From assembly GCA_021790305.1 (NCBI GenBank), contig JAJYED010000001.1, positions 11,844 through 75,843 on the forward strand: a stretch of 64,000 bases of DNA. Reading direction: 5' to 3'. Shown piece by piece: positions 6,340-24,211 of this stretch. Both the position numbers and the translations under genes were made by a program. Numbering within the stretch: position 1 is the first letter of the stretch; each line of letters begins with the position of its first letter. The stretch comes from Candidatus Micrarchaeota archaeon (GTDB lineage: Archaea > Micrarchaeota > Micrarchaeia > Micrarchaeales > CABMGC01). A model generated the notes under the pieces. That model did no database searches and had not been told where the DNA came from. It was given only the letters and a program-made list of their open reading frames with translations.

Positions 6340-7908
6340 TCAGTCAGGCTTTGAGACCAGGAAGGTCTTAGGGTCATATTTGGCATTGTCGTTGACTATC
6401 TGCATTACCTTATCCCTGTTCTTGTAATAATTAGCTATAACCGAACCTGACTCGTTTACAGAGAGCACATCATTCGCAAGCATCCAGTTGAGTACCTTTG
6501 ACTTCTCCCCTATATCCTCTATGACCTCGTTCTTAGTGTACCCGCTATACAGCGATATGGTGTCAACGAGCCTTGTCAGCTCAGACACCTGCACAAAGGA
6601 ATCTCCCCTGAGGTTCCATCTATAAATGACATTGGCCTCCCCGCCCTTCTCTATCTCTCCGAATTCAAAGAGCCTTCTTATTCCCAGCCTTCTGTGCCTG
6701 AAGAGCGCTATTATGCCTCCTATGGCATTGAGCATTACCTTGGGTATCTCTATAGGCGGATTGGTCATTCTTATTATCGCATCCTCAGCGTTATCCGCGT
6801 GAAGCGTTCCATAGACGGAGTGTCCGGTATGCACTGCCTCGAAGAGCGTCTCTGCATCCTTCTTCGTCCTTATCTCCCCTACGATGACTATATCGGGACG
6901 CTGCCTCAATGCGTTTATCATGAGATTGTAAAGCACTATCTCTCCTTTTCCTTCAGGGTTAGCCTGTCTTGTAAGCATAGGCACCCATTGCACAAAGTCA
7001 GGTATGGTGAGCTCCTTTGTCTCCTCGATAGTTATCACCCTCCTGTTTGCAGGCACGAATATTGACATGGCGTTGAGGAAGCTCGTCTTTCCGCTTGCAG
7101 TTCCTCCGCTTACTATCAGGCTTATCTCATTCTGCACGCAGAGCCATATGAGCGATGCAATCTCAGGAGATATCTCCTTGCTCTTTATGAGCAGAGGCAT
7201 CGTCCAAGGGTTCTTTGAGAACTTTCTTATCGTGATCGTATTTCCCTTCTGTGATATGGGGAACAAGGTGGCATTAACTCTCGAACCATCAGGAAGCTCT
7301 GCATCCATGAGCGGGGCTATATTGTTTATCTGCCTTCCAACCAGCCTTCCTATATGCTCGGAGATGTCGTATATTGTAGCTTCGTCGAATATCCTGACAT
7401 TTGATTTGCACCAGCCGAACTTCTTGTGGAATATCCATATCGGCTCCTTTGCAGTGTTTACTGTAATCTCCTCAAGATGGTCGTCAGCGATGAATACCTC
7501 AAGGTCCCCCATGCCAAGCATCATGTTCTTTATGTAAGAGATAAGCGCATCCTTTATCGATTCCTCAGTGCCTGGGAGATACTTGTTTATTATAAGATTC
7601 GCAGCCTCTATGTACTTGTCCCTCATCTTTTCCATATACTCCGTATTCGTTACCTTTGACGTATCTATAGGCACAAGCGACAGCAGCTCCGGTTTTATCG
7701 ACATTAAGAGTATCCTTGTAGCATCTCCTATGCCAGGCATGCTGACCTCGTATATGGGTACGAACTCTCCCTTGTCTATTATGTTTATGTTTGCGGTCAT
7801 CCCCTGTACATTAAGCGTATACGATTCGTAAATCCCATTTGCATCAGGCTGAGGCCCTACCCTCTTGCTTATGTCTTCCTGATCCTCTTTCTTATCAACC
7901 AACAACAC
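6340..7908 (-). CDS. Type II/IV secretion-family hexameric ATPase (FlaI/PilB/VirB11 superfamily)
   Basis: Walker A GGTASGKTS, Walker B DIVIVGEIR, His box TGHSVYGTLHA, and an Asp box region ITIEETKEL. Its 522-aa length, with an N-terminal domain, matches archaeal FlaI/PilB-like enzymes. Confidence 0.85.
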   Translation of the reverse strand: MLLVDKKEDQEDISKRVGPQPDANGIYESYTLNVQGMTANINIIDKGEFVPIYEVSMPGIGDATRILLMSIKPELLSLVPIDTSKVTNTEYMEKMRDKYIEAANLIINKYLPGTEESIKDALISYIKNMMLGMGDLEVFIADDHLEEITVNTAKEPIWIFHKKFGWCKSNVRIFDEATIYDISEHIGRLVGRQINNIAPLMDAELPDGSRVNATLFPISQKGNTITIRKFSKNPWTMPLLIKSKEISPEIASLIWLCVQNEISLIVSGGTASGKTSFLNAMSIFVPANRRVITIEETKELTIPDFVQWVPMLTRQANPEGKGEIVLYNLMINALRQRPDIVIVGEIRTKKDAETLFEAVHTGHSVYGTLHADNAEDAIIRMTNPPIEIPKVMLNAIGGIIALFRHRRLGIRRLFEFGEIEKGGEANVIYRWNLRGDSFVQVSELTRLVDTISLYSGYTKNEVIEDIGEKSKVLNWMLANDVLSVNESGSVIANYYKNRDKVMQIVNDNAKYDPKTFLVSKPD

Positions 7909-7910
7909 AC

Positions 7911-9113
7911 CTACTTGCCAAGCTCCTCCACCTTCTTGGTAAGCTCTTCGGAGTGCGCAGTCATGGCAGCCATGAGCTCCTTTGCCTTTCTAGCCCTGGC
8001 TTCGAACTTCAGCATCGCCTCGTCCCTCTTCGCATCAGAAGCCTTCGGGGGTAATGCCCTTATGCCATCAAGTATGCCGCTCAGCTCCTTCTCCAGGGCC
8101 TTCTGCTCCTCCTTTATGGTGTCCAGGTCTGCCTGTACCTCCCCAACGCTGCTTGCAAGCGTCGCTCCCTTACCTACCTTGACCTTTATGTCGGCTATAT
8201 TCTTTTTTATGAAGCTGAAATCCGCTTCGGATGCCTTCGTTATTGCGTCTATCTCATTCCTATACCTTGTTATCTCATCGACGAAGTGCTCTGCCCTCTT
8301 TGCAGCACGCTGTCCACTAAGTCTTGAATCCTTGTAGTATTTGGAGCTCTGCTCCTGTACGCTCTGTATCTGCTGCGCCTGCAGCTTCGCAAGCTCCGAC
8401 AGTTCCTCTATCTTCAGCAGTATCTTGTCGGACTGCGCCTTCGACAGCTTCCTGTATTCATCTATGCTCTTCTCATTTGCCTTGTTGAATGCATTCAGTC
8501 CCTCCCTGAATATGCTTATCTCATTCCTTATGTCCTGGATCATCGCATTTGCTCCTGAGCTGTCTAGGCTGAATTTATTGACGCTTTCAGAGTATTTGTT
8601 TATATCGGATAGGCTTGCGTCTATGACTGCCTGGAGCTTCTCCAGCTCCGTCCTTCTAGCGTCTATCCTCTTGTATGCCTTCTCCACCCTTCTCTCTATA
8701 TCGGAGATTCGCTTTATAGAGTCATACATCTGCTTGTTCTTCGTCTTGAAGAGCTCCTCTATGCCCTTCATGGACTTTGAATATTCGTCTATCTGCTTTG
8801 TAACTCTGTTGAGCACCGCATCCTGTGCAGATACATCTGCGACAAGATCTGCCTTCTTCACTTCGTCAACTCTCTTCTGCGCCTCTATCACGTCAGCGCT
8901 CTTGGAAGTGCTGTCTGCAGGAGTGACGTACATCTTTCCAAGCTTGTAGGTTATCTTTACTATGTTGGCTTTTTCGAGGATCTTGACAAGATCCGTCATC
9001 GTGTCCTCTCCTATTCCCAAATTTGCTGAGAGGAGTGAAACCTCCGTCTCCCCATTTTTCTTAATATATGCGACAAGTCTGTCGACGCTCGTCTCTATAG
9101 ATTTATCAGCCAC
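7911..9113 (-). CDS. N-terminal winged-helix plus long coiled-coil protein, co-oriented with and 2 nt upstream of the ATPase
   Basis: The first ~65 aa look like a wHTH (VDRLVAYIKKNGETEVSLLSANLGIGEDTMTDLVKILEKANIVKITYK). The rest is E/K/A/L-rich heptad-like sequence. It stops 2 nt before the ATPase start. Confidence 0.6.
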   Translation of the reverse strand: MADKSIETSVDRLVAYIKKNGETEVSLLSANLGIGEDTMTDLVKILEKANIVKITYKLGKMYVTPADSTSKSADVIEAQKRVDEVKKADLVADVSAQDAVLNRVTKQIDEYSKSMKGIEELFKTKNKQMYDSIKRISDIERRVEKAYKRIDARRTELEKLQAVIDASLSDINKYSESVNKFSLDSSGANAMIQDIRNEISIFREGLNAFNKANEKSIDEYRKLSKAQSDKILLKIEELSELAKLQAQQIQSVQEQSSKYYKDSRLSGQRAAKRAEHFVDEITRYRNEIDAITKASEADFSFIKKNIADIKVKVGKGATLASSVGEVQADLDTIKEEQKALEKELSGILDGIRALPPKASDAKRDEAMLKFEARARKAKELMAAMTAHSEELTKKVEELGK

Positions 9114-9358: not shown

Positions 9359-9389
9359 GTGGACGTTAACAATCATCTATAGTGGTTTA

Positions 9390-9860
9390 ATGAATTGGAC
9401 TACAATAAGGACAGCTTTGGTAAAAGCAATGATGATGAATAAGATGCTGCTTATCGCAGCAATGTTTGCAGGAGTGGTACTTGCATCTGCACAATTTAGC
9501 TTAGGCAGTGGCCTCGGTGGCATAACAGGTAGCGCTAGCCCAAACACTCAGGGAATTCAGAACTCACTCTGTCATGTTATTCAAGGGGTGCAACAGGTAG
9601 TTGCAGTAGTATCAATACTGCTCTTCGTACTCGGAGGTCTTATGTATGCAATAGCGCATATGATGCCTGCTGCAGGACAACTAAGAGGAAACCTGCAGGG
9701 ATGGTCTATGGGAATGATAGTAGGAGGAATAGTTGGTCTGATACTTGTACTATTGGCTCCTGGACTGGTCGGCTTCATAGTGGCTAACGGACAAGCTGCA
9801 GGAGGCGCAGTAACAAGCGCCGGATGCAGCAGCTTTGGCATCAACCTTGGCGGTTTCTGA
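9390..9860 (+). CDS. Secreted two-helix hairpin protein, candidate VirB2/TrbC/CedA1-type conjugative-pilin-like subunit
   Basis: Signal peptide (MNKMLLIAAMFAGVVLASA/QF) followed by a short polar segment. Hydrophobic helix 1 is VVAVVSILLFVLGGLMYAI. A short basic loop follows (AHMMPAAGQLRGNLQG). Hydrophobic helix 2 is WSMGMIVGGIVGLILVLLAPGLVGFIV, then a G/A/S tail. The topology is that of VirB2-family pilins. No sequence search was possible. Confidence 0.5.
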   Translation: MNWTTIRTALVKAMMMNKMLLIAAMFAGVVLASAQFSLGSGLGGITGSASPNTQGIQNSLCHVIQGVQQVVAVVSILLFVLGGLMYAIAHMMPAAGQLRGNLQGWSMGMIVGGIVGLILVLLAPGLVGFIVANGQAAGGAVTSAGCSSFGINLGGF

Positions 9861-9878
9861 ATCATATGATATAAAAGC

Positions 9879-9916
9879 GGATGGGGCTTTTCCCCATCTC
9901 TTTTTCTTTTTTATTT
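9879..9916 (+). terminator. Hairpin plus T-run terminator after the pilin-candidate gene
   Basis: GATGGGG-CTTTT-CCCCATC forms a 7-bp stem, followed immediately by TCTTTTTCTTTTTTATTT. Confidence 0.5.
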
Positions 9917-10004: not shown

Positions 10005-10751
10005 GTGCTTGCTGACTCTTTTGAGACTTATAAGTCCAACATAAGGCTTGTCATCCTCTTCTCAATACCATTCATAATCGCATTCCTCATTCCTTTAATA
10101 GCCGTCCATGATGCATATGTAAGTGCAGGGGGGATCTTCCTAAGGACAGCAAACCTCTTCCATAATCCAACTCCGTTGGGATTGAGCATAATAGCAATTG
10201 CAGAGTTCTTCTCCCTGTTATTCATCAGCCTTGCGTTCGTGCTGATAAGCCTGATAGTCAAATCAAAGAGGACCCATGTGCGCATAGGGCAGATGGCCTT
10301 CAAGGAGATAGAGAAGAACATAAGCAAGGTCTTCGTAGTATTGCTTATATATACATTCATACTCCTGCTCGCAAACATAGTCGGATATTATCTGGGATAT
10401 GAAGCTCTATTCACAATAGTGGTCGGGATTGCAGGGATAATACCTATCTTCTATGTACCAAGTGCAATAGTCGTAGATGGCAAGAGCATATCCAGGGCAG
10501 TGAAGGAGAGCGTAAAGCTGATAGCGCAGGAGCCGCAGTACTTCATTATCTGGATAATAAGCGCCATAGTTGTCATATTCATAGCTGATTTTGCATCGAT
10601 ACTCGGATCAATAGCTATTCTCGGACCACTTACAGGAACAGTAGTATCTGAGTATCTTGTACTGATCCTGAACTCCTTATTCATACTGCCATACTTCATA
10701 ATCTTCATAGCAGAGGCATACATGAAGAAGTTCAAGCTCCTTAAGCACTGA
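10005..10751 (+). CDS. Polytopic membrane protein (about 6 TM), unknown function
   Basis: GTG start. The sequence is hydrophobic nearly throughout, with short basic loops (KSKRTHVR, KKFKLLKH). Confidence 0.6.
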   Translation: MLADSFETYKSNIRLVILFSIPFIIAFLIPLIAVHDAYVSAGGIFLRTANLFHNPTPLGLSIIAIAEFFSLLFISLAFVLISLIVKSKRTHVRIGQMAFKEIEKNISKVFVVLLIYTFILLLANIVGYYLGYEALFTIVVGIAGIIPIFYVPSAIVVDGKSISRAVKESVKLIAQEPQYFIIWIISAIVVIFIADFASILGSIAILGPLTGTVVSEYLVLILNSLFILPYFIIFIAEAYMKKFKLLKH

Positions 10752-10788: not shown

Positions 10789-12060
10789 ATGCGACTGCAA
10801 GCTCTTGTACTATTAACGGCATTTGCAATACTCACAGGGCTTCTTCACGCATCTCTCTTTATCACCCCTCCTGGGTACAGTACTCTGGTTTCCAATACTC
10901 CTAATGCTTGTACAGCGGTAATACATGCTACAGGAGGGACAATCCCAAGCACGCAATCTGGCGGCGCATTAATTACCTCACTTCCGGCAAATTCTTTCGG
11001 AATAGGGATTGCTCTTTTGGCCCTGGTCCTTTCAATAATGATTGTTGCGATTGTATACATGATAGGCAAGGTCTTTCCAAGCTCAGGGCTGCTTGGCTGG
11101 GTGAATCAGGAGTACTGGGAAATAGCAAAATCAGGACTAATATTATTGGCAATATTCGCACTACTTATCTTCATGAGCAATATAGCAGTAGCAGTAACTA
11201 ATACACCAGTAACTGCATACAGTAAAACAAATACTTACCTTAACAACATAAACGGACTGCTATATTCTTCAGAGACCTATCTTCTTACTGTTGACTCATA
11301 CTCTGCTGCAGGCTGGTGCACTCTAGGGCGTATTGATCTTGGTACGGCACTAATTAACAGTATCAAAATAGAGTACTATTTACCGTTTGACATATTTGAT
11401 GTAGGCCTCAAATTCGGGTTTGAATTCTCTCCTCTAACATCTGCTACAATACTGGCTGGAAGTGATCCTACAATAAGCCAATTACAGTCTATGTTTGTAG
11501 ATACGATAATACTTCTCTATTATCCGCTATCTATGGTAGATATAGTACTGATAGAGATTCTCCCCATCCTCGTATGGATAGGTCTAGGGTTCTTTATACC
11601 ATTCGGGATCTTTTGCAGAGCGCTACCTGTAATACGTCCCCTAGGGGGCACGCTGATCGCCATAGGTATCGCTCTTTCAATACTCCTTCCTTCAGTTCTA
11701 GTTATGCTAAACGTTCCTGTTACTAGCGTAATGCAAAACGTTCTGCCGATAAACGCTATTACCAGCCAGAATAATGCGTGCAAGCTTGGAAATGTGGTAT
11801 TTGACTATGCGTGCAAGGGACTCAATACGGTAGTTGGCGGCATATCTGGCATCGCCGATAGTCTTATATGGGGATTCTCTGCTTTTGGAGGCCTATATAC
11901 TATATTGAATGTGCTCATACCCTATCAATTATTCATGATGCTGCAAGAAATACTCTTAGTACTGGATATAATTATAGTCTATGCCATAGCAGATAATATA
12001 GCTATAGCTTTGGGAGGAAAGATGCCTACAAGTATTGGCGGTAAATTCAAACTTATTTAG
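10789..12060 (+). CDS. Polytopic membrane protein, array paralog 1 (VirB6/CedA-like by position and topology only)
   Basis: N-terminal signal-like helix and multiple TM segments. It carries the shared motif RPLGGTLIAIGIALSILLP and an early acidic motif NQEYWEIAKSG. TTTATAAA lies 22-29 nt upstream. Confidence 0.65.
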   Translation: MRLQALVLLTAFAILTGLLHASLFITPPGYSTLVSNTPNACTAVIHATGGTIPSTQSGGALITSLPANSFGIGIALLALVLSIMIVAIVYMIGKVFPSSGLLGWVNQEYWEIAKSGLILLAIFALLIFMSNIAVAVTNTPVTAYSKTNTYLNNINGLLYSSETYLLTVDSYSAAGWCTLGRIDLGTALINSIKIEYYLPFDIFDVGLKFGFEFSPLTSATILAGSDPTISQLQSMFVDTIILLYYPLSMVDIVLIEILPILVWIGLGFFIPFGIFCRALPVIRPLGGTLIAIGIALSILLPSVLVMLNVPVTSVMQNVLPINAITSQNNACKLGNVVFDYACKGLNTVVGGISGIADSLIWGFSAFGGLYTILNVLIPYQLFMMLQEILLVLDIIIVYAIADNIAIALGGKMPTSIGGKFKLI

Positions 12061-12067
12061 TGGTAGT

Positions 12068-13228
12068 ATGTTTTTCTTATTCGCAACAGCAACTTCGTAT
12101 CCGGGCTGTAGTTTCGGCGGAGTGGATACGAATAACTGGATACAAATAAATGCGCTGCTGCTTTTAATTGCAATATCGCTTGGTGCCGTATTCTACGCCT
12201 TTAGCAACATCTTGCCGCCTTCACAAAGCGAGAAGATGAAGGGCATGGTCAAAGCAGAGATATTTCAAGGGATGATAGGCATATTCATAGTTGCCGTTCT
12301 TGTATCATCGGCTTTCACGTGGTGCAACATAGGCATCTCTTTAACAAGCTCCTCAGGCATAACTACTGCCAATCCCATGGCATTCTCGGAAAGCTATCTG
12401 CAGAATCTGCTATTTACAAAAGGACTATCCCTGTTCGGATCTATATACTCGGAAACAGCATTATTGATGATAAACGGGATAGTATTGCAGCATGTGCTAA
12501 ACTTCGTACAGAGGATCGAGGCAAGCTATCTTCCTGTGCAGATAATTCTGTCGGAAAGATTGGCAGATGCACTGCAGAGTTATGCTATTGCATTTGGCTC
12601 TGCAAACCTTAGCATATTCTCAATAATCGCAGGGATAATATTCGTAATATATTTGGTTCTGCCTGTAGTCTCATCCATTGCGCTTACCGTGGTTGTGCCT
12701 ACTGCGATAGCCATGCGCATGCTCTCTTTCCTGGGTCCAAGGATAAGGGAGGCATCAGACGCTTTCCTTGCCATAGCGATAGCTGCATACTTTATATTTC
12801 CTTTAATGATAGTAATGAACAGCATGCTAATAAATTTCATTTACACTCCATGCACAGCTACTGTATCGACATGCAATCCTTATTCTACTTACCTGGGCCA
12901 GTACAAGCTCTCTCAGATACCTGCAGATTCGCTATTCAACACACCCCCGGCTTCTTTAGGCAGTTCCTTCTCTATATCTAAAAACTTCTTCGAAGGAATT
13001 ATCACAAGCCAAAATGGCCTTTTAGGAACATTCGGATCGATCTTTACCAATGCCTTCCTATTCCCTCAAGTAGTAATCTCATTTGCACAGGAGATAGCGC
13101 TTTTTGCTTTCCAGGGAGTATTCCTTATAGGACTTGATATACTTGTAACTATAATATTCGCCCAAGCTGTTGCAAAAGGGCTTAATTCAGTATCTGTTTA
13201 TGTCTCAGGAGGAGGTTTCTGGGGTTGA
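12068..13228 (+). CDS. Polytopic membrane protein, array paralog 2
   Basis: The ATG at 12068 is 8 nt after the paralog 1 stop (the track's TTG start at 12035 is an alternative). Motifs are REASDAFLAIAIAAYFIFP and VKAEIFQGMIG. Confidence 0.62.
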   Translation: MFFLFATATSYPGCSFGGVDTNNWIQINALLLLIAISLGAVFYAFSNILPPSQSEKMKGMVKAEIFQGMIGIFIVAVLVSSAFTWCNIGISLTSSSGITTANPMAFSESYLQNLLFTKGLSLFGSIYSETALLMINGIVLQHVLNFVQRIEASYLPVQIILSERLADALQSYAIAFGSANLSIFSIIAGIIFVIYLVLPVVSSIALTVVVPTAIAMRMLSFLGPRIREASDAFLAIAIAAYFIFPLMIVMNSMLINFIYTPCTATVSTCNPYSTYLGQYKLSQIPADSLFNTPPASLGSSFSISKNFFEGIITSQNGLLGTFGSIFTNAFLFPQVVISFAQEIALFAFQGVFLIGLDILVTIIFAQAVAKGLNSVSVYVSGGGFWG

Positions 13229-14874
13229 TGCGCATGAAATTAAGAATAACATTCATATTGTTCTTCCTTGCTGCAATTGCGACATATTCTGTTGCAAGTG
13301 CTGCTACACCAAGCACAAATAATAACTTCATAACATCATCGAGTATACTTAACAACTGGATCGTGATAGTCGCTGAGGGGGTCATTGCAAGCTTCATGAT
13401 TGTTTCAGTATACTACATGATAGGGTACCTGTTTAACAGATCAAGCATCAAGGCAGCAGCAACTTCTGAATTAGGCAAGCTTATCGGCATACTGATAGTA
13501 TCGATGGTAATACTGGGGGTATTTTATTCGTTCGGCGCTTCCCTGCTCTTTACAAATGCTGCTGGACAAGCTCAGATAGCGACCTTGTGCAACCAACTTC
13601 AGAATTCAAGGATAAATTTCATAAGCACTAATTCGCTAGTGCCTTCTCCTTCACCATCTAGTACGATATGCACTGATATAATAGACCCGAAAGCAGGCAC
13701 GAATATAGGCCAGGCTACGCGTTACATAGATTATGGTCTAAGCTCAGTATACATAATAGAGGACAATCTTACAAACCAATCTGCCCAGTCGTTAAACTCT
13801 GTTTATATATTCAGTACAATGCTGGGCTTCCTCAGGAAATACTCGATAACCGATTCGGTGTGTTTTCCGGCTCCGCCCTGTCTCATACCGGGGGAACTCT
13901 TCCAGACAGGCGTCGAACTCTCTTCCACCCCGTATGCCGGCTATCAAATAGGAAATACTCTCCCAAATGTGATAGGGACAGAGGCAAATGTCATATTCTA
14001 CTTCTTCCTGTTCCAACTTATACTGATACTTCTGATGCTGCTGATATGGCCGTATCTGCTGGCTGCCGGCTTGCTGCTTGAGACAAATATGTTTACCAGA
14101 AGACTTGGAGGCCTATTGATAGCAATAGTGATATCAAGCATGCTGGTATACCCGACAGTATTCCTGTTCGAGTACTCCTCCTTAAATAATCTGCAGAATG
14201 TACAGCCATATGGTGCATCATCAATACCCAGCCTTGCCCTGTGCGGCGCCCCTGCAGGAGGCACTCCTCTTGGCAAAACCCCATTGCTAAACGGCCAGCA
14301 GGCAAGCGGTGTTTATTGCTACACTGATGCAAAAGAGCTGCCATTAAGCTACATATACAAAGCAACTCTTCCGGATACGTTTACCGATATGGTTCCAAAT
14401 AACTATAAGAGCTACAGCCCGAATCTACTGGTTCCGGCATGCCCTAATAAAAATGCGCAAGGTTTATGCTTCTTCCAGAAGAATCTGAACTTTTTCGTAA
14501 TGCCAAAGATAAAAGACATACTTAACTTGTACTTTACGTGGCCAGCAGGCGGAAGTCTCCTTTCATTCGAAGCTCCATTCGTCGTGCCAGCTACTGCTCT
14601 GGTAAAGAACGTGGTAGACGCAATAGCTTCATTGACCAGCCTTCTCTCAGGCAATTTCATAGGGTCATTTCCATCAAGCATACTTGATTATTACGTGGAT
14701 CCTGCACATACTGTTGCAGCTATACTCGCATTGATTAACGTATATGCAATAGATGCTGTTGTAGGATTCATATTGCCGGTATTAAATGTACTTATATTGA
14801 TATCATCAATATTAGAGATCTCAAGGCTGCTGGGAGGTGAAAGGACCATACTTGGCCTAGAAAAATTCGTGTGA
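13228..14874 (+). CDS. Polytopic membrane protein, array paralog 3 (largest, with an extra extracytoplasmic insert)
   Basis: The ATG overlaps the upstream TGA (TGATG), and GGAGG lies upstream. It has the signal peptide MKLRITFILFFLAAIATYSVASA. Motifs are RRLGGLLIAIVISSMLVYP and ATSELGKLIG. Confidence 0.65.
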   Translation: MRMKLRITFILFFLAAIATYSVASAATPSTNNNFITSSSILNNWIVIVAEGVIASFMIVSVYYMIGYLFNRSSIKAAATSELGKLIGILIVSMVILGVFYSFGASLLFTNAAGQAQIATLCNQLQNSRINFISTNSLVPSPSPSSTICTDIIDPKAGTNIGQATRYIDYGLSSVYIIEDNLTNQSAQSLNSVYIFSTMLGFLRKYSITDSVCFPAPPCLIPGELFQTGVELSSTPYAGYQIGNTLPNVIGTEANVIFYFFLFQLILILLMLLIWPYLLAAGLLLETNMFTRRLGGLLIAIVISSMLVYPTVFLFEYSSLNNLQNVQPYGASSIPSLALCGAPAGGTPLGKTPLLNGQQASGVYCYTDAKELPLSYIYKATLPDTFTDMVPNNYKSYSPNLLVPACPNKNAQGLCFFQKNLNFFVMPKIKDILNLYFTWPAGGSLLSFEAPFVVPATALVKNVVDAIASLTSLLSGNFIGSFPSSILDYYVDPAHTVAAILALINVYAIDAVVGFILPVLNVLILISSILEISRLLGGERTILGLEKFV

Positions 14875-16049
14875 TTTTTGTGAGAAAATACGCCCTGTTG
14901 ATAATATTCGTCTCCGCCCTACTTCCGGTATTGCATGCTTCATCTGTTCCATTCCCCAGCGGCCAGAATATCTTCGACTGTACTACCCTTTTCACAAACA
15001 ATGTGAACGGCAATTCTCTGGTAAGTCCTGCTCTTGCTTCCTACTCATCTTACACCTCACTCCTAAAAATATCCTTATTGGTTGCATTTGCAATGATCAT
15101 GTTGATGGGATTAGTATATGTCCTTGGAATAGCATCAAAGTGGGACATGCTCAAGAAATTCGCAGCTAACGAATACTTGGAAGATTTCTTAAGCATAATT
15201 ATAATATTAATAGTAATCGGCGGCATAGCTATATTCAACAGCGCATCTGTAACTGTTGCAAATACGTTTACAGTTAATCCAAGTTCTTCTACCACTTCAA
15301 TTCTGACTCCTGCCTCTTTATACACATCCTTATGCAGTAATATGTTTAGCAACATGATTGAACCAGGGCTTCTAACAGAAATATGGATAGAGATTAACAG
15401 GATCCTAATCGGATTGATTGGCGGATTGAAAATCGATCTGGCTCCTAGCAATTTCGGGATAATCTTCGTTCCTCTTGCAGGATTCTCTTTGGTAAACCAA
15501 CTGCTATGGATTGAAGGCGGCGCATCTTTCTTCATGCTTTCAGCCGGTGCAATGATGATAGTGCTGCTTTTTGTGATATACTACCTGTTCCCGCTCTTCC
15601 TGTACCTTGGCATTGCACTCCGTGCCTTCCCATGGACGAGGGCTGCAGGAGGGGCATTCATAGCGCTATTTGTTGCCTTCTATATATTCTTCCCTGCAAT
15701 TATGTACCAGTTCTCAACAAGCTTCTCTACCTTTACCAATCCCAGCAGCAGTGCAGTTGGTTTATGTTCTTCAGGAAAAACAAACTGCGTCAGCAGTCCA
15801 GAAAGCCTTGCTACCAGCTCTTTCAAGGCATATCTGGGCGTGCTTAACCTTGACGTTGGATACACGGCATATACTAATATATACTACTTTTCTTACATCT
15901 TCCTGTATCTTGCACTTAATGTATTCGGCTTAATACTGGCTCTGCTTATATCGTATGAGGTACTTGGCATAGTCGGAAGACTTCTAGGAGCCAGTTCTGT
16001 CAAAGGAAGCAACATGTTCAAGAAGATTCTCTCTCCAAATAAACCATGA
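14871..16049 (+). CDS. Polytopic membrane protein, array paralog 4
   Basis: The GTG start overlaps the upstream stop by 4 nt (GTGA). Motifs are RAAGGAFIALFVAFYIFFP and AANEYLEDFLS. Confidence 0.62.
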   Translation: MIFVRKYALLIIFVSALLPVLHASSVPFPSGQNIFDCTTLFTNNVNGNSLVSPALASYSSYTSLLKISLLVAFAMIMLMGLVYVLGIASKWDMLKKFAANEYLEDFLSIIIILIVIGGIAIFNSASVTVANTFTVNPSSSTTSILTPASLYTSLCSNMFSNMIEPGLLTEIWIEINRILIGLIGGLKIDLAPSNFGIIFVPLAGFSLVNQLLWIEGGASFFMLSAGAMMIVLLFVIYYLFPLFLYLGIALRAFPWTRAAGGAFIALFVAFYIFFPAIMYQFSTSFSTFTNPSSSAVGLCSSGKTNCVSSPESLATSSFKAYLGVLNLDVGYTAYTNIYYFSYIFLYLALNVFGLILALLISYEVLGIVGRLLGASSVKGSNMFKKILSPNKP

Positions 16050-17131
16050 GGTTGTATATGATGAATGCTTCGGTTGGAAATTTTCCAGGATTCCTCTTTT
16101 CAGCAGTCTGTTCATTAAATAACATATTATCCTCTCCATATACTTTCTGGTTTCCGATAGTAGTAGTAGTGGCAATTGCAGTGATACTCATTGCAATATT
16201 GATAGGTATGTTGTCTCCGTTGCTTGGTAGAAACAATCTTGTACCCTGGGCAAGACTAAAAGCATACGAGGAGGTAGCAACAATAATATTCGCAATAATA
16301 TTTCTAAGTTTCTCCTCAATGCTCTGCGCAATAAATCCGATACCTGCTCTAAACTCAATCGGATTAGTGCCTACCGAATGCTCCTCATCATCAGCTGTCC
16401 CAATAAATAACATCTGGGGAATAGCAGTATGCAATATGTATACATTTAATACTCATGTCTCAGAGATTCTAACTGCAGGATACTGGCTAAATTTCCTTAG
16501 CGATGTAGGTCCAAAGTTTGGGTTTAGCCCTAATTTTGGCGGTGTTGGCATATCTGCTTCACTGTCACTATCTACAGGTCCGGAGAATCTGTATCTGTCG
16601 CCTATGTACTTCCTCATAATAGGAGAGATCATGGTATCAATGCTGCAGGTCATTCTGTTATCTTCTGCCCCCATATTATTCTCATTTCTAATAGGCATAG
16701 GTCTGATAGCAAGGTCATTTGGTATAACAAGAACCTTTGGAAACGCCATGATAGCTCTTGGAATAGGAATAGGGTTCATCTACCCACTACTCGTAACCAT
16801 AAGCTATGGGTTCATAAACACTACATTTACCAATGTGCTAAATGCCGCAGGAACATCCTTTGTCAATCTTTTTAAAGATTTCACGCTGAGCTTCTTGCTT
16901 TCATTGGTTTATCCTCTTTTTGTCAGCTCTTCGATTTATTGGGCAGCCGTAGCTGTAGTGCAGATCTGGAATATCCTAAGCCTGTTAATATTCCTTGCAG
17001 CCATAGTTGTAATGGGTCTGGTGTTCATACCTATGCTAAACTTCATGATACTCGATGCTTTTGTAAGGGACTTTTCAAGCTCGCTCGGACAGCAGGTATC
17101 ATTTCTAGATATGTTAATCGGGGTAGTTTAG
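16046..17131 (+). CDS. Polytopic membrane protein, array paralog 5
   Basis: The ATG overlaps the upstream stop by 4 nt (ATGA). Motifs are RTFGNAMIALGIGIGFIYP and LKAYEEVATI. Confidence 0.62.
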   Translation: MRLYMMNASVGNFPGFLFSAVCSLNNILSSPYTFWFPIVVVVAIAVILIAILIGMLSPLLGRNNLVPWARLKAYEEVATIIFAIIFLSFSSMLCAINPIPALNSIGLVPTECSSSSAVPINNIWGIAVCNMYTFNTHVSEILTAGYWLNFLSDVGPKFGFSPNFGGVGISASLSLSTGPENLYLSPMYFLIIGEIMVSMLQVILLSSAPILFSFLIGIGLIARSFGITRTFGNAMIALGIGIGFIYPLLVTISYGFINTTFTNVLNAAGTSFVNLFKDFTLSFLLSLVYPLFVSSSIYWAAVAVVQIWNILSLLIFLAAIVVMGLVFIPMLNFMILDAFVRDFSSSLGQQVSFLDMLIGVV

Positions 17132-18226
17132 ATGAGAAAAGCAAGTGTATATCTGATAACTATCTTGTCCATACTACTAATCGGCGTGGCGAGCGCACAA
17201 TCAACAACATCCTCTGTCTGTAATACTGGAAGTGCTATACAATCAGCAGCTCCATGGTATTGCAGCCAGGTAAATACACAAGCCCAGAGCGTCTGGGTTC
17301 AATGGGCACCTCTTGCCATAACTGTTGCGTTATTCTCGTTCATGATAGGCGTTCTTATATTCATGGCTGGAATAGCCATGAAGAACAACACAGTCCGGAG
17401 TTTCGGAGTAGGTGAGCTGTATGAATCCATTGCGTCTATGCTGATTGTGGCAGGCTTCCTATTCATAACCGCAGTGCTTTTTGGTCTTATTCCATCGATT
17501 GTCACAGGCCCGATAAATCCATACAATACTTCGCTTAGCTACATAGCAACTACTATAAACACTACGAGCTCACTGGCATCAAGACTCTTCATAATAGGCT
17601 CGTTAGATGCATACTATGCAAGTATAAGCGTACAACTATACATCCCAGGAATTACGGATAACACCGAGGCTCCCACCCCTCTCTCTTCCAAACCATTTGG
17701 AATATTGATACTTCTATTCTACTGGCCGGCATGGGCACTTATGCAATTCATGCTGGATGCGCTAATTTCGCTTTATGCCCAATACTACTTTATCCTATTC
17801 TTCTTATACGCAGGCATACCTGTCTTTTTGATACCTGGCGTTATACTAAGGGCTTTCCTGCCGACCAGGGGGGTAGGAAGCATGATGATTGCAATAGCGA
17901 TCGGCTTCTTTTTGGTAATGCCTGTACTGTTCTCTGTTGCCTACTACTTTACCAATCTTGGCGCGTTAAAAGCGCTATCTAACACCTATTCTATACTAAC
18001 CCAGTATGGATCAGGCACAGGGGCGCAGGCAAATGCCCTTTCTCCTTCATCACCGCTTGTCCTTGCTGTTTCCAATTCCAGCAGTGTAATGGGTGGCTTC
18101 TGGCTATCCATATTATTCTTCCCAGCCATAATACTTGCAATAACCTACTCGGTAGTAGCTAACATCGCAAACCTTATCGGGGGAGCAGCAAAAGCAGGCA
18201 GCAGCAGGCTAAGAAGTCTGATATGA
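17132..18226 (+). CDS. Polytopic membrane protein, array paralog 6
   Basis: The ATG directly abuts the upstream TAG. It has the signal peptide MRKASVYLITILSILLIGVASAQS. Motifs are RGVGSMMIAIAIGFFLVMP and GVGELYESIAS. Confidence 0.65.
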   Translation: MRKASVYLITILSILLIGVASAQSTTSSVCNTGSAIQSAAPWYCSQVNTQAQSVWVQWAPLAITVALFSFMIGVLIFMAGIAMKNNTVRSFGVGELYESIASMLIVAGFLFITAVLFGLIPSIVTGPINPYNTSLSYIATTINTTSSLASRLFIIGSLDAYYASISVQLYIPGITDNTEAPTPLSSKPFGILILLFYWPAWALMQFMLDALISLYAQYYFILFFLYAGIPVFLIPGVILRAFLPTRGVGSMMIAIAIGFFLVMPVLFSVAYYFTNLGALKALSNTYSILTQYGSGTGAQANALSPSSPLVLAVSNSSSVMGGFWLSILFFPAIILAITYSVVANIANLIGGAAKAGSSRLRSLI

Positions 18227-18235
18227 AAGGATCAT

Positions 18236-18442
18236 TTACAACAGTGCGAATGTCATCAGAAATTGTTGATCATAACTATGATCATATTTAGTTATTGTTA
18301 CTACTGTCATTACCAGAACTACTGTTATCATTCGCAGAATAATTATTACTGCCATCCCAGAACTGCCGCTGTTATCGTTCATAGGATAACTACTGCCCTC
18401 ATTCCCTGAACTACTTTCCAGAGGCGTTCTAGTAAGAACCAT
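18236..18442 (-). CDS. Questionable 68-aa ORF (S/G/N-rich segment plus a hydrophobic helix) overlapping the end of the upstream gene
   Basis: The ATG overlaps the last 14 nt of the 278-aa gene. The region contains an out-of-frame direct DNA repeat (AAYGATAACAG..AGTTCTGG), so the frame assignment is uncertain. Confidence 0.25.
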   Translation of the reverse strand: MVLTRTPLESSSGNEGSSYPMNDNSGSSGMAVIIILRMITVVLVMTVVTITKYDHSYDQQFLMTFALL

Positions 18443-20712: not shown

Positions 20713-21534
20713 TTGAACAAGAACTTTTCTTTCCTGATATTCTTGGGCCTGCTTTCAGGAGCTTTCATATGTGCAGTAATAATAGGCATACTGCCTCCAG
20801 GGTATGAAATAGTCGCAATAATCCTGGCGGCAATAGGGCTTCTTTTCGATGTAATTGCCGCATCTGCCAGGTTCTATTCATACTACTTCGTTCCATTCAT
20901 CAAGCGCAAGAACAATGTGGTTACGCTGAGCAACGAGCCACCATTCTTTGTGACAGCTTCGGGAAATGCAATAATAATAAAAGAAGAAGAAAACACCTAT
21001 GCGAGCGTCTTTGTAAAGATACCTGTCTATCTGTCTTCAACGGAGATGTCTGACGAGGAGAAGCTCAATTTTGCAAGATCCTTCTCGAAGATGATAACAG
21101 TCAATAGCAGATATCCGATGAAACTGGCATCACAGCTCTATTACCTTAACAAAGACGAGTACATACGAAGGATAAGTGCAAAGCTGAATGAAGTGGAAGA
21201 CAAGTACGATAAACTGAAAGCTGACAAGACCACGCCTGACAAGCTTCTGGAGCGCGTAGAAGGAGAGTTGGCGATGTGGCACAACCTCTTTGACGGGGTT
21301 AACAAGTCGCCCTCGCAGAACCAGATGGCATATGCCATGGTAAGTGCCCCCGGGGCGAACGAGGAGGAAGCAGTAGCGATAGCCATGCAGCGTGCAGAGG
21401 AGGTCGCAGCAGGAGCCGGCTCAATCTTCGGCGTGACTGCAAGCATAGCTACCGGAGAGGAGATGCTCACGTTTGTAGAGCCAGAATACAGCATACCTCC
21501 CGCAACGATAAGCGAGCTTCTCAAGAAGGGATAA
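20713..21534 (+). CDS. 2-TM plus ~200-aa soluble-domain protein, paralog a (possible VirB3/VirB4-N-domain-like component)
   Basis: TTG start and an N-terminal TM hairpin (FLIFLGLLSGAFICAVIIGIL / IVAIILAAIGLLFDVIAA). The soluble domain is collinear with the next ORF. It lies directly upstream of the VirB4-like ATPase. Confidence 0.55.
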   Translation: MNKNFSFLIFLGLLSGAFICAVIIGILPPGYEIVAIILAAIGLLFDVIAASARFYSYYFVPFIKRKNNVVTLSNEPPFFVTASGNAIIIKEEENTYASVFVKIPVYLSSTEMSDEEKLNFARSFSKMITVNSRYPMKLASQLYYLNKDEYIRRISAKLNEVEDKYDKLKADKTTPDKLLERVEGELAMWHNLFDGVNKSPSQNQMAYAMVSAPGANEEEAVAIAMQRAEEVAAGAGSIFGVTASIATGEEMLTFVEPEYSIPPATISELLKKG

Positions 21535-21536
21535 GC

Positions 21537-22361
21537 ATGGATGAAGAGACGATATTCAGGGTTGGGATCACATCGATACTTGCATTGATGTTCGCATCGT
21601 TCAGTGCAGCTTATGGTCCTTTGGATATACTTGCAATAATACTCTTCCTAGTTGCATTCATTCTTATAATGGTCATAAGCTTCGCAGACTTCTTACTCTT
21701 TCCGATATTCACAAAGCTTCTCAAGGTCAGCACAATTCCTGCAAGGGATTACACGATTCCTAAAGAAAACGACGGGATAGTAAAGTATGTTAACGGCCTT
21801 TACTACGCAACGGGATATCTTACTGCCAATGTCTACAATTATGTCTTCCAGGCGGAGCAGATGATAGAAGGGGAGGAGAGCGAGATGGTCATGGGGCCCG
21901 ACAAATGGGAAAAGGCAGTAATGAGCGTAAAATTCCCATTCAAATTCATAGCGATAGGGCAGGCTGTAGACATACAGAAGTACAGGGATGACCTGGAAGG
22001 AAGAAGGGCATATCTCGAATTCCAATACTCAAAAAGCGAGAGCGCTCCCAATGTCTCTACTTCAGTGCTCGAAGACCTAAAAAGAAGAACGCGAGTGCTT
22101 CAGGTAAGGATAGACAGACTTGGGGCCGGTGAGAGACCTCTTAGCAGCATGATGTATATAGAGACCACTGCAGTTGGAATAACAATGAGCGATGCCATGA
22201 GTAAACTTACCCAGCAGACAGACCAGCTGCAAACGGTATTCAATGTATTCGATCTTGACCTGATAAGGGTGGTGGGCAGGGAGATGTACAGTCTTTACAA
22301 GCTGAATTATTACATACCAACCATGGAAGAGATTATATCATCATTCCAGTTCCAAAAATGA
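21537..22361 (+). CDS. 2-TM plus ~200-aa soluble-domain protein, paralog b
   Basis: Starts 2 nt after the previous stop. It has the same architecture, and its C-terminal blocks align (MMYIETTAVGITMSDAMSKL...VFNVFDLDLIRVVGREM vs MAYAMVSAPGANEEEAVAIA...IFGVTASIATGEEM). Confidence 0.55.
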   Translation: MDEETIFRVGITSILALMFASFSAAYGPLDILAIILFLVAFILIMVISFADFLLFPIFTKLLKVSTIPARDYTIPKENDGIVKYVNGLYYATGYLTANVYNYVFQAEQMIEGEESEMVMGPDKWEKAVMSVKFPFKFIAIGQAVDIQKYRDDLEGRRAYLEFQYSKSESAPNVSTSVLEDLKRRTRVLQVRIDRLGAGERPLSSMMYIETTAVGITMSDAMSKLTQQTDQLQTVFNVFDLDLIRVVGREMYSLYKLNYYIPTMEEIISSFQFQK

Positions 22362-23911: not shown

Positions 23912-24211
23912 ATGGCAGGAACCTACATGATAAACAAGATAGAGCTCAAGCGCATACTCCATTCTTTCGGCGTTAATATAACGAGCGTTGAGAAAATGTT
24001 AGGGGAGCTCGACAAGATGCACAAGAATGTCAATGCGATAGAGTTTGCCAAGATGCTCTTTGGAGTAGGGCTGAAACAGTTGCAGGTCGAGACGATACTG
24101 AGAAGGATAGGAGTAGATGACCTTTCCATATCAGACATATTCGATAGGATAGATGAGGATAAGATACACCAGTCATTCGGAAGAGTGGTGGAACTCGGTG
24201 TAGATCTATAA
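23912..24211 (+). CDS. Small helical protein, unknown function
   Basis: 99-aa ORF starting 4 nt after the ATPase stop. No recognisable motif. Confidence 0.45.
   Translation: MAGTYMINKIELKRILHSFGVNITSVEKMLGELDKMHKNVNAIEFAKMLFGVGLKQLQVETILRRIGVDDLSISDIFDRIDEDKIHQSFGRVVELGVDL

Follow-up and report, generated by a model that had tools for sequence, protein, structure and literature searches.

A likely VirB2/TrbC-family pre-pilin gene in a T4SS-like chromosomal locus conserved in Micrarchaeota

We describe here a small Micrarchaeota gene whose likely product is the pre-pilin, or major subunit, of a conjugation-type VirB2/TrbC-family filament belonging to a chromosomal T4SS-like apparatus conserved in Micrarchaeota, with both filament formation and cargo unproven. 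The filament itself lacks support from expression data, proteomics, or imaging, and the case rests on the gene, its family, and its neighbors. The gene lies within a 64,000-nt stretch of DNA that was analysed as a whole (the window) and in which no second pilin-family unit was found. It starts with ATG and codes for 156 residues plus a stop, as the sequence-only reading of the region had claimed. The open reading frame is a real gene under selection, with dN/dS values against close strains of 0.23-0.26 versus 0.01-0.05 for flanking genes (the rows for Trm5 in L001 and for M397 were left out, their codon alignments being mis-registered). The gene has 41 homologues in a 5.8-billion-protein set, and a search of a 1.84-billion set recovered 349 cluster representatives at E<=1e-3. 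The features discussed are collected in Table 1.

The layout of the encoded protein is that of a leader followed by a helical hairpin with variable ends. The leader is composed of a conserved MNWTTI(R/K) N-extension, K12 and K18, a 13-residue hydrophobic core (MLLIAAMFAGVVL), and A-S-A, and the -3/-1 rule places a putative signal-peptidase-I site between A34 and Q35 (...VVLASA/QF); this is inferred from sequence alone, without a predictor or proteomics, and small residues occupy the -1 and -3 positions of the predicted site in most aligned family members. The segment that would follow cleavage, with a lineage-specific Gly/Ser-rich insert at approximately residues 37-51, is among the least conserved (top-residue frequency 0.21, occupancy 0.51). 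Helix 1 includes the stretch VVAVVSILLFVLGGLMYAI (residues 70-88) and helix 2 the stretch WSMGMIVGGIVGLILVLLAPGLVGFIV (residues 105-131), with hydropathy peaks of 2.2 and 2.7 respectively in 19-residue windows, and the 16-residue loop between the helices includes AAGQLRGNLQG (94-104) and has Arg99 as its sole Arg. No segment of the pilin family is more conserved than this loop (entropy 0.39 bits); H90, P93, G96, Q103, G104, and W105 are invariant in the family alignment and R99 is at least 90% conserved. The top-residue frequency is 0.89 in the loop, 0.69-0.78 in the helices, and 0.21-0.32 at the termini, a pattern compatible with a conjugative pilus, again from sequence alone. Cys61, an equivalent of which is present in each unit of the polypilins P0172 and P0173, and Cys146 in the tail (codon 9825-9827) are both invariant and flank the helical hairpin. 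The 10 residues past Cys146 are restricted to the sub-lineage of the window protein, most relatives stopping at or just past this Cys. An AlphaFold model built with 39 input sequences has helices at 3-39, 53-89, and 96-136, with a mean pLDDT of 67.7, values of 71-87 in the hairpin, and about 40-50 in the tail. The signal peptide ending ASA/QF, the two hydrophobic helices, the loop with a single Arg, and the Gly/Ala/Ser tail had all been proposed beforehand, and all held, every quoted string being present in the translation.

Table 1. Features of the pilin locus, in coordinates of the 64,000-nt window
Feature	Coordinates	Strand	Basis
T2SSE-superfamily (FlaI/TadA/VirB11-class) ATPase, divergent from pilin	6340..7908	-	Pfam T2SSE 4.2e-35
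400-aa coiled-coil protein paired with the divergent ATPase	7911..9113	-	Coiled-coil family matches
TATA-like box TATTTAAA	9350..9357	+	Read off the sequence, ~33 nt upstream of the ATG
Likely pre-pilin gene, VirB2/TrbC family	9390..9860	+	ORF, family profile placement, helical hairpin model
Long leader, aa 1-34 (cleavage predicted)	9390..9491	+	Sequence and family alignment
Variable N-terminal segment of the predicted mature protein, aa 35-60	9492..9569	+	Alignment
Invariant Cys61 codon, just N-terminal of helix 1	9570..9572	+	39/39 family members
Hydrophobic helix 1, aa 64-89	9579..9656	+	AlphaFold model and hydropathy
Inter-helix loop HMMPAAGQLRGNLQGW, aa 90-105, with Arg99	9657..9704	+	Conservation
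Hydrophobic helix 2, aa 106-131	9705..9782	+	AlphaFold model and hydropathy
Variable Gly/Ala/Ser tail, aa 132-156	9783..9857	+	Alignment and conservation
GC hairpin (9879-9899) then T-run	9879..9916	+	Fold and recurrence in related loci
Conserved 248-aa polytopic membrane protein (M248)	10005..10751	+	Gene-order comparison
Polytopic membrane paralogue 1 of 6, 423 aa	10789..12060	+	Gene-order comparison
Polytopic membrane paralogue 2 of 6, 397 aa	12035..13228	+	Gene-order comparison
Polytopic membrane paralogue 3 of 6, 549 aa	13225..14874	+	Gene-order comparison
Polytopic membrane paralogue 4 of 6, 392 aa	14871..16049	+	Gene-order comparison
Polytopic membrane paralogue 5 of 6, 361 aa	16046..17131	+	Gene-order comparison
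Polytopic membrane paralogue 6 of 6, 364 aa	17132..18226	+	Structure model
273-aa protein (p273), first of the 2-TM pair	20713..21534	+	Gene order and hhalign
274-aa protein (p274), second of the 2-TM pair	21537..22361	+	Gene order and hhalign
VirB4/CedB/HerA-class P-loop ATPase, 501 aa	22402..23907	+	Pfam, NCBIfam, hhalign

Placement of the family with TrbC/VirB2 (PF04956) is likely, and is supported at the level of the family by the profiles of close homologues together with the conserved linkage to a VirB4/HerA-class ATPase and polytopic proteins. The intact window protein has no Pfam match at E<=1 and so falls below the curated PF04956 cut-off of 27.9 bits; alone it has no significant NCBIfam match, and neither profile nor single-sequence searches of PDB sequences gave a match to the pilin. 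PF04956 is matched at E<=0.1 by 30 of 39 family members, three of which exceed the cut-off (P0007 with 35.0 bits, P0020 with 33.2, and P0010 with 30.3) in alignments running from model positions 5, 8, and 11 respectively to 98, which is nearly the whole model, and P0007 shares 66-71% identity with the window protein. Removal of the Gly/Ser insert and the N-extension brings the window protein to 25.0 bits (E 2.3e-5, positions 13-98 of 98), still just short of the cut-off. By hhalign, the pilin family matches six annotated bacterial VirB2 proteins with P=2.8e-4, versus 0.1-0.4 for VirB3, VirB6, and VirB8 controls, and its helix 2 pairs with helix 2 of bacterial VirB2; we note that these comparison profiles are narrow, because all six reference virB operons are alphaproteobacterial. 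The leader, the two hydrophobic helices, and the short loop with a basic residue meet the criterion of a TrbC/VirB2 layout, and one homologue is labelled as a VirB2 pilin in the JGI annotation. In Pfam, some family members also give weak matches to membrane families such as Yip1. Foldseek with the pilin model against the PDB returned generic helical hairpins only, with TedC (8dft_A) at rank 8 and non-significant (E=2.8); a fold search with a two-helix hairpin is uninformative. The proposal of a VirB2/TrbC pilin candidate in the sequence-only reading thus held at the family level, with the window protein itself missing PF04956, and its more specific suggestion of kinship with CedA1 and TedC was not shown, the Foldseek alignment being the sole direct comparison.

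The pilin is co-encoded with a VirB4/HerA-class ATPase, situated 12.5 kb downstream in the window. The locus was found in 37 related genomes, all of them Micrarchaeota-type MAGs, with a common order of a divergently transcribed FlaI/VirB11-class ATPase and coiled-coil protein, the pilin, M248, six paralogues, a 2-TM pair, and the VirB4/HerA-class ATPase. In L037 this ATPase comes straight after the cluster; L030 and L014 have in that position the 2-TM pair, which precedes the ATPase. The 501-aa protein consists of the ATPase domain only, with Pfam matches to DUF87, AAA_10, and the TraG P-loop domain; its NCBIfam matches to CedD, CedB, TraC, and VirB4-like families are all partial and below cut-off, hhalign aligns it to residues 441-687 of 803 in VirB4 at 90.5%, and its identity across Micrarchaeota is 67-72%. 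The best NCBIfam matches, CedD (67.9 bits, cut-off 600) and CedB (64.5 bits, cut-off 700), are domain-only, and the protein fails the NCBIfam equivalog criterion for CedB/TedB. The HerA match in NCBIfam is nearly as good as that to VirB4 or CedB, and whether the protein is VirB4 proper or a HerA/CedB-like relative is unresolved.

Between the pilin and this ATPase are membrane proteins with few recognizable relatives. M248 is encoded downstream of the pilin in 36 of 37 loci, adjacent to it or one inserted gene away, and has no Pfam or NCBIfam match. It was considered as a pilin-processing enzyme and rejected, there being no family match and no recognised motif formed by its conserved E103, D158, D195, E237, and several Ser residues. 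The six paralogues occupy the position expected for VirB6/TrbL, and VirB6 homology can be neither accepted nor rejected: the Pfam scan gave no TrbL match for the window paralogues or for 67 M364 homologues, hhalign against six bacterial VirB6 proteins gave P=0.25, and the model of paralogue 6, a bundle of 34-53-residue helices (pLDDT 83), gave only weak and non-significant Foldseek matches to TrwI/VirB6 (E 0.16-0.22, ranks 3 and 6). No link of the paralogues to VirB6, TrbL, CedA, or TedA was obtained by Pfam, hhalign, or Foldseek. The two proteins of the 2-TM pair, whose N-terminal hydrophobic segments were counted by eye as two TM helices, are mutually paralogous (hhalign 92-94%), and a p273 counterpart immediately follows the sixth paralogue in L037, L030, and L014. 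Identification of p273 and p274 as VirB3, VirB8, or the VirB4 N-domain was rejected in the absence of similarity by hhalign. The downstream machinery genes postulated in the earlier reading fit this conserved block of polytopic membrane proteins and the VirB4/HerA-class ATPase.

On the other side of the pilin, the divergent ATPase scores 250 bits with FlaI, 176 with TadA, and 133 with VirB11 in NCBIfam, all below cut-off, and is nearer FlaI than VirB11; it adjoins the pilin in 14 loci, distant ones among them. The coiled-coil protein is co-conserved in 15 loci, and its weak HTH_PafC match (E 0.018) makes an N-terminal HTH no more than possible. The locus is flanked by genes for the ribosomal proteins L1 and L10, Trm5, Topo VI-B, eIF2-gamma, CDC48, PFOR, RFC, and a class II aminoacyl-tRNA synthetase of the D/K/N type, and no integrase, relaxase, or coupling protein was seen at the locus or in its flanks. 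Given these housekeeping flanks and the absence of integrase and relaxase, a conjugative or integrative mobile element was rejected; the synteny extends over 37 genomes.

The pilin gene is followed by a GC hairpin and a long T-run, as the sequence-only reading had stated. The hairpin has the stem GGATGGGG/CCCCATCT with a 5-nt loop, followed by CTTTTTCTTTTTTATTTAT, and a folding energy of -14.9 kcal/mol (z = -2.4 against shuffles). A strict hairpin and T-run within 100 nt of the pilin stop is found in 12 of 37 loci, versus about 0.22 expected at a background rate of 0.006 per 100 nt, with stems that vary in sequence from one locus to the next. We infer from its sequence, fold, and recurrence that the element is terminator-like or 3'-end-stabilising.

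Several Micrarchaeota relatives have pilin arrays, and the family also includes polyproteins in which four to seven pilin units are joined (the polypilins mentioned above are examples) and adhesin-pilin fusions, with large extracellular domains joined to a single hairpin unit in P0285, P0296, P0261, and P0203. These arrays, fusions, and polypilins sit immediately upstream of the same machinery, as would be expected of a surface filament with both major and minor subunits. No description of a Cys-bracketed hairpin or of polypilins as variants of pilin biogenesis was found in the literature searched.

There are alternative readings to consider. The one that survives best, which we regard as unlikely, is that the VirB2-family protein stays in the membrane as a channel subunit or as an anchor for surface domains, without a pilus. 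Single hairpins with large extracellular domains would be equally sensible as membrane-anchored adhesins, VirB5-, VirB7-, VirB9-, and VirB10-type parts were not found, and the link of the paralogues to VirB6 is unproven. However, a near-invariant loop with hypervariable outer tails and paired Cys residues suits a packed and exposed polymer, the pilin gene has a terminator-like element of its own, which is conserved and would suit a subunit needed in excess, and solved VirB2-family proteins of this layout, including CedA1 and TedC, make pili (PMC9905601).

Much less plausible is an ordinary three-TM protein unrelated to secretion, with an uncleaved N-terminal helix and a Pfam similarity that reflects hydrophobic composition. 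The window protein alone indeed lacks a significant database match, AlphaFold renders the leader as a single long helix (3-39), and the weak matches to membrane families such as Yip1 demonstrate that composition can by itself give a match. Against this, the hydrophobic core of the leader is merely 13 residues long, with A-S-A next to it, conservation is lowest in the leader and the adjoining segment, TrbC matches are full-length and present in 30 of 39 members with three above the curated cut-off, the VirB3/VirB6/VirB8 controls are at least 400-fold worse in hhalign, and the pilin stays linked to a VirB4-class ATPase across related loci. An archaeal type IV pilus subunit, that is, a class-III-signal-peptide pilin driven by the FlaI-like neighbor, is also very unlikely and was rejected: the divergent ATPase is most like FlaI/TadA and keeps its place beside the pilin in 14 loci, and Micrarchaeota are known to have type IV pilus loci (PMC5498576), but the long leader is not a class III signal peptide, ends in AXA, and is followed by two more TM helices (three hydrophobic segments in all), the pilin has no Pilin_N match, no T2SSF/TadC/PilC was present among the locus proteins scanned, and the TadC and class III pilins of the type IV pilus loci in the Micrarchaeon Mia14 are absent here.

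Returning to the VirB2/TrbC-type pilin, we can propose a plausible pathway for it. The pre-protein would enter the cytoplasmic membrane, where signal peptidase I is predicted to cut the 34-residue leader after ASA, and the mature protein of about 122 residues would then reside in the membrane as a two-helix hairpin with its variable tails outside and the basic loop with Arg99 in the cytoplasm; the conservation is shown, and the topology is inferred. Cys61 and Cys146, both on the outer side in this topology, may form a disulfide within or between subunits, and such a bond could tie the ends of the hairpin and replace the head-to-tail cyclisation of VirB2/TrbC. By analogy with bacterial T4SS and with Ced/Ted, the VirB4/HerA-class ATPase would pull subunits from the membrane and stack them into a tube, with the two 2-TM proteins, the six polytopic proteins, and possibly the FlaI/VirB11-class ATPase as assembly partners, although only the linkage of these genes is shown. 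Within the tube the loop would, again by analogy, line the lumen and the variable tails cover the surface. The filament or its base may then serve cell-cell contact and the transfer of macromolecules, probably DNA, between Micrarchaeota cells or between a Micrarchaeon and its host archaeon. From its conservation, the hairpin and T-run is inferred to end or stabilise an abundant monocistronic pilin transcript. A lumen-facing Arg99, polymerisation, and attenuation at 9916 had been part of the earlier reading as well, and these remain inferences that are not shown.

The system shares features with several known ones. With the bacterial TrbC/VirB2 pilins (Agrobacterium VirB2, RP4 TrbC) the Micrarchaeota pilin has in common a long Sec-type leader, a two-helix hairpin, a short basic loop, near-full-length Pfam matches in its close homologues, and a VirB4-class ATPase in the cluster. 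It differs in its archaeal (DPANN) host and chromosomal locus, in the lack of any relaxase, coupling protein, VirB1, VirB5, or VirB7-10 seen at the locus, in the longer loop of 16 residues, and in the occurrence of polyproteins and adhesin fusions. VirB2 and TrbC undergo head-to-tail cyclisation (a point made also in PMC13434634 and PMC11722321), whereas the Micrarchaeota pilin has an invariant Cys pair around its hairpin.

A second comparison is with TedC of Thermoproteales and CedA1 of Sulfolobales/Aeropyrum, which are archaeal VirB2-like pilins of DNA-import machines (PMC9905601). Like the Micrarchaeota locus, Ced and Ted are domesticated T4SS-like systems encoded on archaeal chromosomes, in which a VirB2-like pilin is accompanied by polytopic partners and a VirB4-like ATPase, and TedC has a leader of the signal-peptidase-I type (PMC9905601). 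However, they belong to another phylum and have one CedA/TedA rather than six paralogous membrane proteins, M248 and the 2-TM pair are extra, and, unlike the Ced/Ted pilins, the Micrarchaeota family is detectable directly by the bacterial Pfam model. Patescibacteria (CPR), which are also ultrasmall and host-dependent, have chromosomal T4SS with VirB2-like pilin arrays, proposed for host interaction (PMC12102498), and share the relaxase-less chromosomal clusters and VirB2-like pilins, often in divergent arrays; their system is nonetheless bacterial, with a VirB4 in the monoderm MPF-FATA class and different accessory genes (PMC12102498), and polypilins and a Cys pair are unmentioned in the relevant sections of that report. 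The rvh T4SS of Rickettsiales is an analogy only, combining obligate host association with tandem expansion of a polytopic component (duplicated VirB6; PMC2653234, PMC7648143), whereas VirB6 homology of the six Micrarchaeota paralogues is unproven.

It is not settled by what means DPANN archaea hold on to their hosts and obtain material from them. Microscopy studies have reported pili-like links joining ARMAN cells to Thermoplasmatales, with no molecular identity assigned (PMC5498576), and no published description of such a system in Micrarchaeota, which are tiny host-dependent DPANN archaea, was found in the literature searched. The locus is a concrete candidate, conserved across the phylum, whose major subunit is small and lends itself to tagging or antibody production, and the organisms that carry the locus are now available in co-culture. 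If the reading is true, archaeal conjugation-derived machines reach beyond the crenarchaeal Ced and Ted systems, in parallel to the relaxase-less T4SS of Patescibacteria. A bolder reading, which taken as a whole we consider only possible, is that of a phylum-wide domesticated conjugation-type machine, perhaps present in other DPANN too, acting as a physical conduit to the host, in which a VirB2-type tube would serve the uptake of DNA and further macromolecules from hosts of the Thermoplasmatales type, or their exchange with such hosts. Its subunits would each be closed by a disulfide between Cys61 and Cys146 instead of cyclisation and be made in some lineages as polyproteins or adhesin fusions, and a strain-variable cassette of six paralogues would confer partner specificity.

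We also note that the TATA-like box upstream of the pilin gene could, judging by its sequence and position, be an archaeal promoter with a short leader that holds GTGG (9382-9385).

The product of the pilin gene, 156 residues encoded from an ATG start, is a member of the VirB2/TrbC family and has the hairpin architecture of that family. The protein alone gives no significant Pfam or NCBIfam match. It has 41 homologues, however, and 30 of the 39 aligned family members match PF04956 (TrbC/VirB2 pilin), and 15 of the 39 match PF18895 (T4SS_pilin) weakly. Three homologues score above the curated Pfam TrbC cut-off of 27.9 bits and cover almost the whole model (P0007, 35.0; P0020, 33.2; P0010, 30.3 bits), and the window protein is 66–71% identical to the first of these. 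In the window lineage a Gly/Ser-rich insert (about residues 37–51) sits at the junction of the leader and helix 1, and when this and the N-terminal extension are deleted the window protein matches TrbC with 25.0 bits (E 2.3e-5, positions 13–98 of 98), indicating that the insert masks the match. As an independent check, VirB2, VirB3, VirB6, and VirB8 were taken from six annotated plasmid virB operons; hhalign of the pilin family gave P=2.8e-4 against VirB2, the aligned part being helix 2 only, as against 0.1–0.4 for the VirB3, VirB6, and VirB8 controls. Searching by fold, and against PDB sequences, told us nothing useful about so small a hairpin. We also note that some automated labels already exist: several homologues carry Pfam TrbC, JGI calls one a 'VirB2 pilin', and one ATPase is tagged 'VirB4 component'.

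The translation reads MNWTTIRTALVKAMMMNKMLLIAAMFAGVVLASA followed by QFSLGSGLGGITGSASPNTQGIQNSLCHVIQGVQQVVAVVSILLFVLGGLMYAIAHMMPAAGQLRGNLQGWSMGMIVGGIVGLILVLLAPGLVGFIVANGQAAGGAVTSAGCSSFGINLGGF, the inferred cleavage point lying between the two, and the strings that the sequence-only reading had cited for the 156-residue protein are all present in it, so that this observation held. The hydropathy maxima, taken over 19-residue windows, are 1.9 for the leader, 2.2 for helix 1, and 2.7 for helix 2. The AlphaFold2 model, with 39 homologues as input, has helices at residues 3–39, 53–89, and 96–136; its mean pLDDT is 67.7, with 71–87 in the hairpin and values below 50 at residues 36–52 and 148–156.

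Two cysteines are invariant in the family alignment, C61 just ahead of helix 1 and C146 past helix 2. The second is the final or near-final residue in most members, and the window sub-lineage has about 10 residues beyond it. The inter-helix loop HMMPAAGQLRGNLQGW is the most conserved segment (top-residue frequency 0.89), the helices are intermediate (0.69 and 0.78), and the mature N-terminal segment (0.21) and the tail (0.32) are the least conserved. Against two close strains the pilin dN/dS is 0.23–0.26, with 0.01–0.05 in neighbouring genes. It is well known that the loop of conjugative pili faces the lumen and that the termini are exposed; this arrangement is also described for such pili (PMC9905601). 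The pattern seen here agrees with that architecture, although the placement of particular segments at lumen and surface is inferred.

We consider it likely that the window protein serves as major subunit of a pilus or tube of the conjugation type, with polymerisation itself being inferred. In the mechanism we propose, the leader would be cut after A34, the subunit would adopt a membrane topology that is likewise inferred, and a C61–C146 disulfide may stand in place of the peptide cyclisation of VirB2/TrbC. The ATPase would then drive extraction and polymerisation, the loop carrying Arg99 would line the lumen, and the filament may serve in cell-cell contact and macromolecule transfer. Of the other explanations, the one that survives best is a membrane subunit that does not polymerise, which is unlikely. 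An unrelated protein with three transmembrane (TM) segments, which has the TrbC/VirB2 placement against it, and a type IV pilin are both very unlikely.

Scanning a single genome for each species recovered 37 loci; 35 of them bear the label Candidatus Micrarchaeota or Micrarchaeaceae and the other two 'Marsarchaeota', which identifies the window as part of a Micrarchaeota (DPANN) chromosome. Gene order is kept across them (divergent ATPase and coiled-coil protein, pilin, M248, six paralogues, 2-TM pair, ATPase), and the linkage of the pilin to a VirB4-class ATPase and membrane proteins is conserved.

Features of the pilin locus and its surroundings, with fusion proteins from related loci
Feature	Coordinates	Strand	Remark
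406-aa Ser/Thr/Asn-rich membrane-anchored protein	362-1582	+	
T2SSE-superfamily ATPase	6340-7908	-	divergent from pilin
Coiled-coil protein, 400 aa	7911-9113	-	divergent from pilin; weak N-terminal HTH match
Pilin	9390-9860	+	two tandem copies in some loci
Stem of terminator-like element	9879-9899		
M248, 248-aa polytopic membrane protein	10005-10751	+	conserved order
Six polytopic membrane proteins	10789-18226	+	conserved order
278-aa secreted-looking protein	18429-19265	-	extra gene in window
427-aa Lys-rich protein, N-terminal TM segment	19346-20629	+	extra gene in window
Two 2-TM proteins	20713-22361	+	conserved order
501-aa ATPase	22402-23907	+	conserved order
99-aa ORF	23912-24211	+	just past ATPase
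811-aa protein	25554-27989	+	
Thermopsin-family (acid protease) domain protein	36023-37231	-	
632-aa polytopic membrane protein	L033:10311-12209		between pilin and M248
Polypilins: P0172, P0173, P0175, and the L044 locus	L044:10001-11899		signal peptide, extracellular domain, four to seven VirB2-like hairpin units
Adhesin-pilin fusions: P0285, P0296, P0261, P0203, P0194, and the L044 locus	L044:12004-16876		

The 501-aa ATPase matches DUF87/HerA, AAA_10, and TraG P-loop domains in Pfam, and its NCBIfam matches are partial, led by CedD, CedB, TraC, and VirB4-like models, and all under cut-off. It aligns by hhalign (90.5%) to the C-terminal ATPase domain of a bacterial VirB4 (residues 441–687 of 803), is without the VirB4 N-terminal domain, and is 67–72% identical across Micrarchaeota. 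The 99-aa ORF has a weak likeness to residues 425–497 of this ATPase (BLAST E 0.002–0.013, in a tiny database). The divergent ATPase matches FlaI best (250 bits), with TadA at 176 and VirB11 at 133 in NCBIfam, and the adjacency of the ATPase/coiled-coil pair to the pilin is retained in distant Micrarchaeota (ATPase identity 61–68%), even where the remaining upstream synteny is gone.

M248 is next after the pilin, directly or past one inserted gene, in 36 of the 37 loci. It is about 96% conserved in close strains and has no family match. At least 95% of sequences retain E103, D158, D195, and E237, and at least 90% retain the C-terminal His248; a role in modifying or processing the pilin is possible but speculative. 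In about 20 loci a gap of ~2 kb separates the two genes, and many Micrarchaeota have there an extra 632-aa protein with a C-terminal extracellular domain, which matches nothing in Pfam or NCBIfam and is missing from the window lineage.

The six membrane proteins are distant paralogues (pairwise BLAST E 1e-6 to 5e-3) sharing, by eye, the motif R-x-(F/L)-P-x-T-R-x-x-G-G-x-x-I-A. They form a strain-variable cassette in a conserved backbone: between close strains the block has 50–77% protein identity with synonymous divergence saturated (dS at least 1.4), whereas the flanks and M248 are 95–99% identical with dS of 0.36–0.63, and one breakpoint relative to L001, a related locus, lies within the block near 11.7 kb. 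The history of the block is therefore deeper than that of its surroundings, which recombination or long-maintained alleles would account for, and the divergence fits exposed proteins facing partners or viruses. The model of the sixth paralogue, M364 (pLDDT 83.3), is a bundle of 34–53-residue helices for which Foldseek gives TrwI/VirB6 only as weak, non-significant hits at ranks 3 and 6 (E 0.16–0.22); sequence methods gave no match of the six to VirB6.

The 2-TM proteins, about 273 residues each, are mutually paralogous (hhalign 92–94%), and each has a soluble domain besides N-terminal hydrophobic segments that we read as two TM helices. The pair is immediately upstream of the VirB4-class ATPase, and we detected no resemblance of it to VirB3, to VirB8, or to the N-domain of VirB4. 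In L037, L030, and L014 the sixth paralogue directly abuts the pair, without the two window-lineage genes; the ATPase start is visible past it in L037, and the sequence examined stops short of it in the other two.

Downstream of the pilin an 8-pair stem (-14.9 kcal/mol, z = -2.4) is followed by CTTTTTCTTTTTTATTTAT, and the hairpin and T-run that the earlier reading had placed after the gene thus held. In 12 of 37 loci a strict element of this kind follows the pilin stop by no more than 100 nt, where about 0.2 would be expected from a background of 0.006 per 100 nt. The stems are unlike from locus to locus (e.g. GATGGGG, GGGTGGGGG, GGGCTGGGC, GGATGCCACG, and GGTGCCGCC), which argues that the element is selected for structure.

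A profile search with the pilin family returned 349 cluster representatives. Among the polypilins, P0173 (632 aa) has four tandem pilin units and P0172 (1071 aa) seven, behind an extracellular domain, and every unit of both keeps the two cysteines; in P0172 the linkers from the last Cys of one unit to the first of the next are roughly 17–19 residues, counted by eye. P0173 is present on nine independent contigs, and an assembly artefact is thus probably excluded. Elsewhere, large Cys/Ser/Thr-rich or Ig-like/PKD-like extracellular domains are joined to one pilin unit at either end. At L044 the same machinery genes are directly preceded by one polypilin, three adhesin-pilin fusions, and one single pilin. 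The extracellular-domain fusions occur in arrays ahead of these genes and could be adhesin-bearing tip or minor subunits.

In sequence the nearest relatives of the pilin are bacterial TrbC/VirB2 proteins; in biology the system most resembles Ced and Ted, with which archaea import DNA (PMC9905601), and the chromosomal T4SS of Patescibacteria, which has no relaxase and carries VirB2-like pilins in arrays (PMC12102498). We do not class the locus as Ced/Ted, because the ATPase scores far under the CedB and CedD cut-offs, the accessory genes (six paralogues, M248, and the 2-TM pair) differ, and there is no comparison of the pilin with CedA1/TedC. Full-text searches on VirB-, pilin-, conjugation- or Ced/Ted-type systems in Micrarchaeota and DPANN returned no account of the locus, although most subscription journals were outside coverage and an earlier description is possible; the sole pilus loci listed in the Mia14 genome paper are class-III type IV with TadC (PMC5498576).

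Of the window proteins scanned, none was identified as an integrase, relaxase, or coupling protein. Flanking genes are those for ribosomal proteins L1 and L10, Trm5, Topo VI-B, eIF2-gamma, CDC48, PFOR, an aminoacyl-tRNA synthetase (class II, D/K/N type), and RFC, and the nearest species representative has about 87% DNA identity across the flanks. In the 811-aa protein an N-terminal TM segment precedes a large stretch rich in N-x-S/T sequons, after which come another TM segment and a cytoplasmic domain at the C-terminus. It matches no family and could be either part of the secretion system or a mere neighbour of it. The 406-aa protein is 76–80% identical between close strains in its alignable parts, as against 93–97% for adjacent ribosomal protein genes, and is possibly a surface protein. 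The thermopsin-family protein agrees with an acidophilic habitat of the organism.
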